From positions 126,752-190,751 of the forward strand of contig JAQBUT010000001.1 in the NCBI GenBank assembly GCA_027623195.1: a stretch of DNA of 64,000 nucleotides, in the 5' to 3' direction. This document shows positions 60,701-63,700 of the stretch, piece after piece (the first letter of the stretch is position 1; every line of letters begins with the position of its first letter). Made by a program: the position numbers. Source of the stretch: Chloroflexota bacterium (GTDB taxonomy: Bacteria; Chloroflexota; Dehalococcoidia; Lucifugimonadales; JADFKI01).

Positions 60701-63700
60701 TGTCCTGGGGCAGCCAGACGAAGAATTTGCCCTCGACACCCTCGCTATCAGCGTCCTGCGCTGAGTAGAAGCCGCCCTCCGGCGCCGTCATTTCGCGGGT
60801 CACGTAGGCCAGGGTTTCCTCCACAATGCGCCGATACATGGGCTTTCCAGTTACCTGATGTGCATGGAGGTACAGTTGGACGAGTAGAGCATTGTCGTAA
60901 AGCATCTTTTCAAAGTGAGGGACCAGCCAGAAGGTGTCGGTGGAGTACCGGTGAAAACCGCCGCCGATCTGGTCGTAGATGCCTCCCTTGGCCATTCTCT
61001 CCAGCGTGAGTTCCACCATCTCGAGGGCGTCGGCGTTTTCCGTACGCAGGTAATAACGCAGCAGGAATTCGTAGGTCATCGGCTGGGGAAATTTCGGCTG
61101 GATTCCAATGCCGCCGTACCTGTCATCAAAATCGCCCGAGATACCACTGAATGCCTGGTGCAACACCTCTTCCGTCATGGGAATGCCGGTGCCAGTGTTT
61201 ACCGATGCCATCTGCTCCATTCGTTCGATAAGCTGCTCTGTGGTCTTGACCACATTCTCCCTGTCGTTGGCGTATGCATCCGACAGCGCGGCGAGAACGC
61301 GAGGAAAAGCAGGCATGCCCCCCCGGTCGTCCGGCGGGAAATAGGTGCCGCCGTAAAAAGGCTTGCCGTCGGGCGTCAGAAAGACAGTCATTGGCCAACC
61401 GCCACGACCGGTCATGGCCTGGACGGCCGTCATGTATATGGAGTCGATGTCCGGACGCTCCTCGCGGTCCACCTTGATGCTTACGAACCCATCGTTCATC
61501 TGGGCCGCGATCTCGGGATTTTCGAAGGACTCTCGTTCCATGACATGGCACCAGTGGCAAGCGGAGTAGCCTACACTTAGCAGGATGGGCCGGTCTTCTG
61601 CTTTGGCCCGGTCCAAGGCCTCCTGGCCCCAGGGATACCAGTCCACGGGGTTATTGGCGTGCTGAAGAAGGTAAGGACTGGTCTCGTTGCTTAGTCTGTT
61701 GGGCACAGGCAGAGTTATCCTCTCTAGTTATGGTTGTTTACGTATCGGGACAGCCGCTTTGAAAAAGCCGCGCGACTCAGAGGCCTGCCAGATCCAGCGT
61801 CGTTACCTTGAGACTTACCAGGTCGGCGACCCTTATCGCGTGGTTGTTGGTGTCGGCTATATACATTTTGCCTTGGGCGATGCTAATTCCAGCAGGTTCG
61901 TGGAACTGGACCTCATCTGCACGACCATTTGCCTCACCCGCAACACCCGTTCCTATGAAGCCATAGGCTTCTTTGGTGGCTGGATTAATCTTTTTGATCT
62001 TATTGTTGTATGTGTCGGTCACGTAAAGCATCCCGTCCAGCATTTCGATTCCGATAGGATGCTGGAGACGCACGTCTTCGCCAATGCCGTCCACATCCCC
62101 GAACTCGAACAGATGCAAGCCGACGATGGTCTCCACACGGCCCATGCGACTAAGGTCGGCGGTCCGTATGGCGCTGGTCTCGCTGTCTGTGAAGTAGAGC
62201 TTATCGCCGTCGGTGGCGATCCCGCTGGGTTGGGCCAACTCTGCCTCCGCCAGCGCGCCATCGACAATTCGTTCGCGGCCGTTGCCCGCGTAGGGCCTCG
62301 CCTCTTTCGTCGATAGCTCCAGGCTCCAAAGCTGATGGAAGCCTGCCATAGCGATGTACAGGACGCCTTCATTCAAGACCAGGTCCCAAGGGGAGTTGAG
62401 CTGTATAAGGTCAGCATTGCCGCCCCCGTGGCCCCCTCGCGCCTGCTGGCCGGTACCTGCAATGGTCTTAACCTCTCCACTGATCAGGTCGACCTCACGA
62501 ATGGCATGGTTCTTCGTGTCGGCCACATACAGCGTATCCCCATCAAGTGCCATTCCCTGGGGGTCGAAGAACTGCGCTTCATCCTTGGAGCCATCCCTGA
62601 GGCCTTCCTCCCCTGAGCCAATTACCTGCTGCACCTGGCCTTCCAAGGAGGCAACAAGAATACGATTGTGATTGGAGTCTGCGATGAACAGCCGATCAGA
62701 TGCGGCATCAGCCAAGACCTTGCCGGGGAACGACAACGGACGTTCCCACTCTTTTTCCTTCTCCAGGTGGAAAGTCAGAAGGCCTTTTTTCAACAAATTC
62801 TGGTCTTCGTATTTAGCGACCATGTCGCCCAGTAGCTTGTCGAAATCCGCTAGGTCGATCTCGCCCTCATGCTTACCGATGATCTTCCCCTGTGGGTCCA
62901 CGAACATGAGCGTTGGCCACGCACGCACGCCGTACTGCTGCCATATCTCAAAATCGCAATCGTTGACGACTGGGTGCTCCACCTCGTAGCGCAGGATGGC
63001 CTTGCGCACATTCGCCGAGTCCTGCTCCGCCGTGAACTTGGCGGAGTGGACGCCTATCACGGTCATCTCGTCCCGGTACTTCTCTTCCAATTTCCGCAAC
63101 TGCGGGAATACGTGCATGCAGTTAATTCAACAGTACGTCCAGAAATCCAATAGGACGATTCTGCCGCGTAGGTCTTGCATGGTCAGCGACTTGTCCGTGT
63201 TCAGCCAGTCCAAGTGCGTAGGAAAGTCGGGGGCGTCGTTCTTGCCTTGATACATTCTCGGGCTCATGCGCGGCCCTCCATCTACAGGTGTTTGCGGATT
63301 CGATGCGAAGCGTATGCCGGCGGGTTTTGCTGCCGGGTGGAATCTAATGTACAGGTTTGGTAGGGAATTTAAAAGTTTGGCATGCTAAGAGGGAAACAAA
63401 GAGAGACGCAGCAATAAGAGGCTAGGCTAGCCTTGAATGCGAGGTTTTTTTGCCCAACATACAAGAATCACACCAGAAAGTTACACTGGCCAGGACTCCA
63501 TGTTGTAGGCCATCGTCCAGAAGAGGTATTCGTAACGAGAACTGGTGAGGAAAGCCTGCCGCATAGATTCGCGTACGGCGGGGCCGCCTTGTTCGGCAAA
63601 TGTGTCGACCAGGTCGCGCCATGCTGCGGTGCTCTCCTCCAGGAGGCCGGAATGGTATGCCTCTACCCATGCGTTGTATACAGGGTGGTCTGGCAAGGAA

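Follow-up and report, generated by a model that had tools for sequence, protein, structure and literature searches.

A predicted selenocysteine form of the NHLRC2/SOQ1 thioredoxin-NHL protein in Chloroflexota

Known relatives and the domains of the bacterial protein

Two eukaryotic proteins, human NHLRC2 (structures 6GC1 and 6G7W), which is mutated in FINCA disease, and Arabidopsis SOQ1 (7DJJ, 7DJK and 7DJM), combine a thioredoxin-like (Trx-like) domain with an NHL β-propeller. In NHLRC2 the active-site motif occupies residues 89–93 and lies at the start of a helix, in a cleft that faces the propeller; the Trx-like domain showed no activity in an insulin-reduction assay and was judged inactive on that basis (PMC6107167, accessible portion). 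SOQ1 depends on both C431 and C434 for its function; in a superposition C431 coincides with the cDsbD cysteine that enters into the mixed disulfide (10.1101/2021.03.16.435614, accessible portion). The SOQ1 Trx-like domain contains a redox-active cysteine pair with an Em of -274 mV, and SOQ1, too, did not reduce insulin (10.1101/2024.11.01.621559, accessible portion). As far as the accessible accounts extend, SOQ1 differs from the bacterial protein described here by a HAD domain in the stroma, a membrane helix, its placement in the lumen and a C-terminal domain with C1006/C1012, the last of which is supplied with electrons by the Trx-like domain and acts as a reductase on methionine sulfoxide (MetO) in LCNP. 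The C-terminal Trx-like domain of DipZ/cDsbD (2HYX, 5CYY) shares the TlpA-like fold and carries W-A-Y-S-C-I-N-C as its motif; DipZ/cDsbD is a periplasmic, membrane-bound electron shuttle that uses cysteine and has no NHL propeller.

Known prokaryotic selenoproteins with a U-x-x-C motif (thioredoxin, glutaredoxin, DsbA-like and peroxiredoxin-like proteins, and the classes cd02966 'Thiol-disulfide isomerase-like' and PF08534 'Redoxin family') likewise have selenocysteine (Sec, U) in place of the N-terminal cysteine of a CxxC pair, together with a thioredoxin fold, a hairpin behind the UGA and widespread Cys homologues (PMC13188914 Table 1, accessible portion). None of these families is described in the accessible part of that source as having an NHL propeller or as NHLRC2/SOQ1. 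The accessible text of published selenoprotein reviews, PMC13188914 among them, makes no mention of NHL, propeller or words beginning with Chloroflex or Dehalococc, and a Sec form of NHLRC2/SOQ1 is not named in the published selenoprotein lists and papers that could be searched. Formally, the protein might belong to a generic class that the 2026 review lists as 'Redoxin family, PF08534, UxxC', since it passes the PF08534 model (37.8 bits against a cut-off of 26.6).

The gene in question lies on the minus strand of a 64,000-nucleotide stretch of a Chloroflexota genome (contig JAQBUT010000001.1 of assembly GCA_027623195.1; "the window" below), and its features are collected in Table 1. In a PDB sequence search the best match is SOQ1 7DJJ (E 5.5e-136, residues 9–495), with NHLRC2 6GC1 at E 3.5e-111, so that the homology figures of the first-pass annotation were reproduced; DipZ's Trx-like domain (2HYX, 5CYY) matches at E 2.9e-22. 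The Trx-like part is of the TlpA type, with the motif C-U-I-N-C and a cis-Pro loop, A-W-P118-T, whose W-P-T is common to it and human NHLRC2. Directly behind it stands the NHL propeller, which matches 7DJM (3e-80) and 6G7W (2.4e-66) over residues 176–495/491. Pfam also reports AhpC/TSA at 45.6 bits. As had been claimed, the top NCBIfam match is ResA, at 65.7 bits (below its cut-off of 170), and the protein falls short of every selenoprotein model (WAxxUGC_long, 24.7 against 300).

The 496-residue protein lacks a signal peptide, a membrane helix and a C-terminal domain, and Pfam gives no HAD match; it begins 8 residues before the region that aligns with the lumenal SOQ1 construct. The β-stranded C-terminal domain with a Cys pair that belongs to the mammalian and plant architecture is thus absent, as are the N-terminal HAD domain and membrane helix of plant SOQ1 proper. 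The frame stops about 450 residues past the motif. The C-terminal extension is also missing from 75 of 75 Sec forms; about 140 additional residues with C-x6/7-C are carried by 22 of 34 Cys forms. The earlier description of the protein as the bacterial counterpart of the lumenal Trx-like and NHL part of SOQ1 holds for that homology and does not extend to lumenal SOQ1 as a whole. From its sequence we take it to be a two-domain, presumably cytoplasmic member of the NHLRC2/SOQ1 family.

Table 1. Features of the gene and its surroundings (positions in the window)
Feature	Position	Strand	Basis
Predicted whole selenoprotein gene, 496 codons and TGA stop	61777..63267	minus	Single frame; homologue alignments cross the TGA, residues 1–496
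46-aa call	63127..63267	minus	Gene call
446-aa call	61777..63117	minus	Gene call
Ribosome-binding site GGAGGG, 6 nt ahead of ATG (63267)	63274..63279	minus	Read from sequence
Trx-like (TlpA/Thioredoxin_8-type) domain, residues ~9–150	62818..63243	minus	Pfam PF13905, 64.8 bits; 7DJJ, 6GC1 and DipZ alignments
In-frame TGA, codon 47, read as probable selenocysteine; N-terminal residue of U-I-N-C	63127..63129	minus	Cys in CCINC relatives
TGC, codon 50, putative resolving Cys of U-x-x-C	63118..63120	minus	TGC or TGT in 72/72 unique Sec sequences
SECIS-like hairpin: 5' arm 63108-63102, loop AGUU 63101-63098, 3' arm 63097-63091	63091..63108	minus	Within codons F54–K59
NHL-repeat β-propeller, residues ~176–495	61783..62742	minus	Pfam NHL, 88.6 bits
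DUF255/Thioredox_DsbH protein gene, CHWC motif (context only)	59628..61706	minus	Pfam PF03190, 262.7 bits; begins 70 nt past the stop

The in-frame TGA and its cysteine counterparts

Gene calling divides the gene into two ORFs of 46 and 446 codons. The first-pass annotation had joined them into one 496-residue gene with Sec at codon 47, and this stands: when TGA is translated as U there is a single open frame with one internal TGA, U47 lies within DFWTYCUINC, and the frame ends at a second TGA (61779-61777). Apart from this site TGA acts as a normal stop codon in the window, closing 7 of the 39 long frames. The U47 column of the alignments is the second C of the CCINC motif of SOQ1 and NHLRC2 and the C of SCINC in DipZ. 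The F-T-Y-C-C-I-N-C of NHLRC2 aligns column by column, the human protein having Cys where the bacterial one has Sec, and SOQ1 has the identical stretch l-d-f-w-t-y-c-c-i-n-c-m-h-v, in which C431 corresponds to U47 and C434 to C50.

The same alternation is seen among the bacterial relatives. The gene is present in 35 of 101 genomes sampled from the order, 30 of these 35 copies having an in-frame TGA, and the pattern first noticed in fewer genomes is in this larger sample clearly not a chance one. Thirty order loci were fetched; 25 read WTYC*(I/V)NC (the asterisk being the TGA), three read CCINC and two are cut by a contig end. The residue in the TGA-less relatives G046 and G042, which the earlier work had left unread, is thus Cys (CCINC), as it is in G064, and this bears out the proposal that Sec replaces the first Cys of the CxxC redox pair. 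Two genome collections together gave 110 loci, with TGA in 77, TGC or TGT at the same codon in 29, and the remaining four cut. Among 60 further fetched rows with one TGA in the phylum sample, 59 have it at the motif. Copies of the gene in the Chloroflexota sampled are mostly Sec forms; no Sec form was found in the 28 carriers among 301 genomes of Acidobacteriota, the phylum of a MAG labelled Acidobacteria.

The residue before U varies among Sec forms (C, G, A or S), and U and the downstream C are present in all of those seen. The F-W-T-Y-C ahead of the TGA is retained despite varying third positions (ACG in 14, ACA in 13, ACC in 40 and ACT in 5), and conservation at the protein level spans both flanks of the TGA. 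A few copies look decayed, such as G037 with an extra TAA and G107 with a broken upstream frame. A FastTree tree of 127 proteins calls for at least seven changes between Sec and Cys, three of them forced by well-supported branches; because the tree is unrooted, several long branches meet in it and its rows are best matches to a Sec-form query, these changes are counted without a direction or an origin.

If the calls were correct as annotated, the locus would be a nonsense pseudogene or would yield a functional 446-residue product from M51, and such a product is what the public databases largely list: the UGA truncates 101 of the best 120 public protein clusters, which are labelled, for example, 'alkyl hydroperoxide reductase' or 'YncE'. 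Against this, 77 of the 106 loci that have the motif carry the TGA at the same codon, as do 119 of 120 metagenome matches to a search pattern that itself fixes the TGA, and the 46 upstream codons are kept as protein. A product from M51 would, moreover, be without its first strand and without the whole thioredoxin-fold active site. The comparative data contradict this explanation, which we consider scarcely credible, and cutting at the UGA is a systematic annotation error.

The hairpin behind the UGA and the selenocysteine machinery

Usual bacterial SECIS elements have their loop 16–37 nt after the UGA and a G among the first loop bases. A structure-conserved stem-loop is present shortly past the UGA in the Sec forms: the consensus, UUUCCGC-AGUU-GCGGAAA, begins 21 nt past the U of the UGA and forms a helix of 7 bp capped by a 4-nt loop at +21 to +38. 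In 72 unique Sec sequences the codons that build it are frozen (CCG in 72/72, TTG in 72/72, CGG in 71/72 and CAG in 69/72), whereas in 28 Cys forms the same codons are scattered (CCG in 8, CCC in 12, CCA in 1 and CCT in 7). The hairpin is absent from these 28 Cys forms, and the mean minimum free energy (MFE) is -10.4 kcal/mol in the Sec forms versus -2.65 in the Cys forms. Of the cells in the alignment 99% are paired, U-A has switched to C-G at two pairs (in 22 and 7 sequences), and none of 500 shuffles reached the pairing score. An enlarged set of 188 unique Sec sequences has 87.9% of cells paired, versus 30–68% when the pattern is slid, and shows more swaps (G-C to C-G in 8, U-A to G-C in 10). 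At least six of the seven pairs are retained in 153 of the 188, and most of the other 35 form a different hairpin nearby. Some metagenome Sec forms carry other hairpin types, for example a lineage with L-P-E-L-E-A-L-E.

The copy in the window is a weaker one. Its third pair is a C.A mismatch (63106/63093), the RNAfold MFE structure of a 63-nt piece omits the hairpin, and the local stem reaches -6.5 kcal/mol versus -10.8 for the consensus, with pair probabilities of about 0.55. The hairpin that had been reported about 21 nt behind the UGA is therefore well founded in the relatives, where it is conserved with covariation; in the window it is weakened by the mismatch and is not the MFE fold.

The genome itself has the parts needed to insert selenocysteine, namely a tRNA-Sec (63.4 bits; ARAGORN reports it as tRNA-SeC, anticodon TCA) and selA (554 bits), selB (311 bits) and selD (385 bits), all over their curated cut-offs; selD has an in-frame TGA of its own. 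A selA match is present in 28 of the 30 TGA carriers of the order, the two exceptions being 83% and 68% complete, and in 59 of the 60 verified Sec-form genomes of the phylum sample; the three of 90 Sec-form genomes checked in which selA is unmatched are all incomplete assemblies. Read in the other direction, the association is weak at the scale of the phylum. No selA match was found in the order's three full-length Cys-form genomes (97, 96 and 91% complete), and a rule that the Cys form means no Sec machinery, true for these three, fails across the phylum, where 18 of 21 genomes with a TGA-less motif copy nevertheless have selA.

The weakness of the window hairpin, and the fact that bacteria are known to read through UGA at a low level, might suggest that UGA47 is read without Sec (for example by a near-cognate Cys or Trp tRNA), or that termination is regulated and little full-length protein is made. 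We think this very improbable, as the sequence-specific hairpin, the frozen synonymous sites and the compensatory changes are confined to TGA forms, these forms are almost confined to genomes with selA, and the residue aligned with the UGA is a redox Cys. Selenocysteine is very probably inserted at UGA47, in the place of the active-site cysteine. With a UGA that aligns with Cys in homologues, protein conservation on both its sides, a conserved hairpin and the machinery in the same genome, we hold with considerable confidence that this is a genuine selenoprotein gene, in which SelB and the hairpin would direct Sec to UGA47 and the product would be a 496-residue two-domain redox protein of the NHLRC2/SOQ1 family, U47 attacking and C50 resolving.

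Proposed chemistry and meaning for the family

The hairpin would recruit SelB with Sec-tRNA(Sec), Sec would be inserted at UGA47, and the resulting 496-residue protein would fold with its TlpA-like thioredoxin domain packed against the NHL propeller and U47-I-N-C50 where the first helix begins. The U47 selenolate may then attack a substrate lodged in the interdomain cleft, at a disulfide or some other oxidised sulfur, a selenenylsulfide would form that C50 resolves, and a cellular reductant could re-reduce the Se-S bond. Activity of the classical thioredoxin kind is not to be presumed, because NHLRC2 and SOQ1 were inactive in the insulin-reduction assay as far as the accessible accounts go.

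It could be that the Sec protein is real and that U47 itself reduces peroxide, sulfenic acid or methionine sulfoxide on a propeller-bound substrate, with no thiol-disulfide exchange. The 'alkyl hydroperoxide reductase' name of truncated copies and the AhpC/TSA match would agree with this, as would the methionine sulfoxide reductase activity of the SOQ1 lumenal domains (10.1101/2024.11.01.621559, accessible portion) and the failure of SOQ1 and NHLRC2 to reduce insulin. Since the Sec forms are without the C-terminal domain that bears the MetO activity of SOQ1, the Trx-like domain would itself need to deal with the final substrate. On the other hand, the active site belongs to the TlpA/ResA/DipZ type, with W-x-x-C/U-x-x-C at a helix start, and is not that of a peroxiredoxin, every Sec form seen has a Cys three residues past U, as dithiol-type exchange predicts, and the reductase activity of SOQ1 was assigned to its C-terminal and not its Trx-like domain (10.1101/2024.11.01.621559, accessible portion). 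Direct reduction by U47 is in our judgement unlikely, though less so than either of the alternatives discussed above, and we prefer attack by U47 followed by resolution by C50.

The DUF255/Thioredox_DsbH protein encoded next to the gene was considered as a redox partner that replaces the absent C-terminal domain. The two genes adjoin in 54 of 110 loci, but the DUF255 family is nearly universal (92 of 101 order genomes, with or without the NHL gene, which is in 35), and the candidate was dropped; the adjacency looks like insertion beside a near-universal gene.

The alternation of Sec and Cys at one codon also bears on the family as a whole. On the strength of this alternation we are inclined, with moderate confidence, to think that the second Cys of CC(I/V)NC (NHLRC2 C90, SOQ1 C431) is the nucleophile throughout the family, that human NHLRC2 is a true redox enzyme, and that the two-domain bacterial forms are stand-alone reductases which act on a propeller-docked substrate without a C-terminal relay. 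The first Cys would be dispensable, because some Sec forms have G, A or S there and DipZ has S; the S-C-I-N-C of DipZ indicates, as do the Sec forms, that the residue before the nucleophile is free to vary.

Selenocysteine is known almost exclusively from catalytic redox positions. The existence of a Sec form accordingly gives independent evidence, drawn from evolution, for redox chemistry at the CCINC of NHLRC2 and SOQ1. The present findings would add a widespread selenoprotein family, unnamed in the published lists that could be searched, and its Sec form also points to the attacking residue in SOQ1 and in the human disease protein NHLRC2.

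The probable read-through gene and its protein

The gene consists of two minus-strand open reading frames in a common frame, separated by TGA-ATT-AAC-TGC only, so the first-pass annotation was right to join two calls into one gene. When the TGA is read as selenocysteine (U) the product has 496 residues, with U47 within D-F-W-T-Y-C-U-I-N-C and a second TGA as terminator. A reassigned genetic code was considered and rejected as the cause, because TGA also serves as a normal stop here: of the window's 39 stop-to-stop frames of 250 codons or more, 7 end in TGA. Public gene calls shorten the gene: 101 of the best 120 protein clusters are 432–461 amino acids long (87–90% coverage), and selenium is absent from the source names of all 120.

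Pfam matches in the 496-residue protein are Thioredoxin_8, AhpC/TSA, Redoxin and NHL repeats, and no NCBIfam model exceeds its cut-off. The proposed kinship with SOQ1 and NHLRC2 is borne out by searches of the PDB (Arabidopsis SOQ1, 7DJJ, E-value 5.5e-136 over residues 9–495; human NHLRC2, 6GC1, 3.5e-111); the propeller part alone matches 7DJM (3e-80) and 6G7W (2.4e-66), and the thioredoxin-like part matches DipZ (2.9e-22). Its description as a counterpart of lumenal SOQ1 holds for the thioredoxin-like and NHL homology, but the protein has no HAD domain, hydrophobic N-terminus or C-terminal domain.

In SOQ1 and NHLRC2 the Sec column holds the second C of C-C-I-N-C, which places Sec at the N-terminal Cys of CxxC as first proposed; in DipZ the C of S-C-I-N-C stands there. 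The cis-Pro loop (A-W-P118-T) is retained as well. The residue ahead of U is mostly C (G in 5 loci, A in 3 and S in 1), and U and the Cys three residues on are present in every Sec form, a pattern consistent with U-x-x-C being the redox pair and in agreement with the papers on SOQ1 and NHLRC2. SOQ1 function is reported to be lost by C431S or C434S, and C431 overlays the cDsbD cysteine of the mixed disulfide (10.1101/2021.03.16.435614). In SOQ1 the thioredoxin-like domain is described as passing electrons from a redox-active pair (Em -274 mV) to the C-terminal domain, which in turn reduces methionine sulfoxide in LCNP (10.1101/2024.11.01.621559). In NHLRC2 the CCINC is given as residues 89–93, at a helix start and toward the propeller (PMC6107167).

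Features of the locus and Sec machinery of the source genome (G000)
Feature	Position	Strand	Remarks
46-codon open reading frame	window 63267..63127	-	
446-codon open reading frame	window 63117..61777	-	
GGAGGG		-	6 nt upstream of ATG; window sequence
DUF255/Thioredox_DsbH gene	window 59628-61706	-	692 aa, C-H-W-C; 70 nt downstream, same strand
TenA/THI-4 family gene	window 63481-63969	-	upstream, same strand; cut by window end
Downstream run	window 52458-59354	-	ABC-2 ATPase and permease, two family-2 glycosyltransferases, UDP-GlcNAc 2-epimerase
392-aa open reading frame	within window 52458-59354	-	no Pfam match
tRNA-Sec	source genome		63.4 bits vs gathering score 47; anticodon TCA (ARAGORN)
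selA	source genome		554 bits vs cut-off 268
selB	source genome		311 bits vs cut-off 242
selD	G000:C46:6726-7649 (locus L019)		385 bits vs cut-off 125

The downstream hairpin and the Sec machinery

A candidate SECIS-like hairpin (7-bp stem, 4-nt loop) begins 21 nt after the UGA. Among 72 unique Sec sequences its stem and loop codons are frozen (CCG 72/72, CAG 69/72, TTG 72/72, CGG 71/72) and synonymous sites in the codons beside it are variable; the Pro codon of 28 unique Cys forms is spread over CCG (8), CCC (12), CCA (1) and CCT (7). The amino acids at the site differ as well, D/E-L-K-K in Cys forms versus Q-L-R-K in Sec forms, and the mean MFE of +18..+45 is -2.65 versus -10.4 kcal/mol. In the 72-row alignment helix columns 37–43 pair with 48–54 in 99% of cells (30–71% in slid controls), both partners of two pairs switch from U-A to C-G (22 rows for one pair, 7 for the other), and the covariation score was matched by none of 500 shuffles. 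Pooling all sources, minus one false match (L219), gave 188 unique sequences with 87.9% of cells paired versus 34–68% when slid, and with further swaps (G-C to C-G 8, U-A to G-C 10, C-G to G-C 4). At least 6 of the 7 pairs are retained in 153 of the 188; for most of the other 35 RNAfold gives another hairpin in or near that stretch, e.g. CCRGAGC-UGGAN-GCUCUGG or GCCCGC-GUU-GCGGGC. Metagenome Sec forms such as L136, L139, L146, L152, L175 and L193 have another downstream peptide, e.g. L-P-E-L-E-A-L-E, and their hairpins are of these two kinds or have long UUUCCGGAC.../...GUCUGGAAA stems. The window copy is weaker: its third pair is a C.A mismatch, its stem energy is -6.5 versus -10.8 kcal/mol for the consensus, and its pair probabilities lie near 0.55; three metagenome loci among the matches listed carry the identical 18-mer.

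The source assembly (87% complete, 65 contigs) encodes the Sec machinery listed in the table. Its selD also has an in-frame TGA (S-C-A-G-U-A-S-K), with a 9-bp, GUG-loop hairpin beginning 27 nt past the UGA, and is itself a selenoprotein gene.

Distribution of Sec and Cys forms

At E <= 1e-30 the gene is found in 35 of 101 Lucifugimonadales genomes, 30 of them with an in-frame TGA; the others are three full-length TGA-less copies (G046, G042, G064), a fragment without N-terminus and a weak partial match. The 30 loci fetched from this order read W-T-Y-C-TGA-(I/V)-N-C in 25 cases and C-C-I-N-C in 3, and 2 are cut at contig ends. The residue in the TGA-less G046 and G042, left uninspected at first, is thus Cys, as in G064. 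In the phylum sample the gene occurs in 83 of 401 Chloroflexota genomes, with one TGA flagged in 64 of the 85 match rows. The TGA was at the motif in 59 of the 60 such rows fetched, including G107 with its broken upstream frame; the exception, G113, has C-C-I-N-C and a TGA ahead of the start. Rows left unfetched are those of G326 and G245 (two unpublished genomes) and a second G318 copy, and counts taking in G326, G245 or G138 depend on unpublished genomes. G318 has two equally scoring Sec-form copies on a single contig, oppositely oriented and separated by about 5 kb (G318:C157:31142-32602, minus, and 37867-39327, plus). Decayed copies occur now and then, with an extra in-frame TAA (L033, from G037) or a frame broken upstream of the TGA (L315, from G107).

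Among GTDB species representatives, the best 80 of 528 relatives comprise 52 TGA, 26 Cys and 2 cut loci. Labels of the TGA loci are Dehalococcoidia, Chloroflexota, Chloroflexia or Thermomicrobiales, and in one case 'uncultured bacterium'; those of the Cys loci are Acidobacteriota, Clostridia/Heliobacteria, Bacteroidota, Latescibacterota, Armatimonadota, Obscuribacterales, Actinomycetota (G-C-I-N-C), an unclassified 'uncultured bacterium' MAG and two Chloroflexota. No in-frame stop was found in the 28 gene carriers among 301 genomes from the phylum of an Acidobacteria-labelled MAG. A metagenome scan with TGA fixed in the pattern gave at least 120 loci, 119 being this gene among the matches listed. 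The ENA protein P0008 (497 aa) is a full-length C-C-I-N-C form that retains the peptide F-P-Q-L-R-K-L-E; as this peptide is hairpin-encoded in Sec forms, P0008 may be a recent Sec-to-Cys change.

In the order, selA is present in 86 of 101 genomes and in 28 of 30 TGA carriers (not in G062 and G043, 83% and 68% complete), and was found in none of the three genomes with a Cys form (completeness 97, 96 and 91%; each from a different family). Across the phylum sample 308 of 401 genomes carry it. Of the 60 verified Sec-form genomes 59 do so (all but G426, at 93% completeness), yet so do 18 of the 21 genomes in which the motif lacks a TGA. The Sec form thus needs the Sec machinery, but loss of that machinery does not follow from a Cys form.

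Architecture, neighbours and place among selenoproteins

All 75 Sec forms with a complete frame stop about 450 residues beyond the motif. By comparison, 22 of 34 Cys forms, every one outside Chloroflexota (e.g. L055, L111-L132, L254-L259), are extended at the C-terminus by about 140 residues that include a conserved Y-(Y/F)-C-x6/7-C pair; this extension, present in 0 of the 75 Sec forms, corresponds to the C-terminal domain of SOQ1 and NHLRC2. The Sec form and the missing domain are confounded by descent, since Sec forms are all of Chloroflexota type and Chloroflexota Cys forms likewise lack the domain. The DUF255 gene adjoins the NHL gene in 54 of 110 loci and in none of the 24 Cys loci whose labels are of other phyla or unclassified, and is present in 92 of the 101 genomes of the order; the TenA/THI-4 gene adjoins it in 27 of 110. 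The run farther downstream looks like a cell-envelope polysaccharide cluster.

Full-text literature searches gave nothing relevant that links selenoprotein or selenocysteine to NHL repeat, NHLRC2 or suppressor of quenching, and no Chloroflexota thioredoxin selenoprotein of this kind. The main texts of two reviews (PMC13188914, 2026; PMC9312934, 2022) have no mention of NHL, propeller or words beginning Chloroflex or Dehalococc; NHL is likewise absent from the main texts of the Sargasso (PMC1088965) and GOS (PMC2398784) papers, and propeller from that of GOS. The reviews do list generic thioredoxin-fold U-x-x-C classes (cd02966, PF13098, PF08534), which may include proteins of this kind. On the sequence evidence the selenoprotein gene is genuine and well supported, with Sec insertion predicted, and we regard the protein as a new family member within the known thioredoxin-fold U-x-x-C selenoproteins, the generic classes being compared by description. 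Its Sec form is informative on NHLRC2 and SOQ1.
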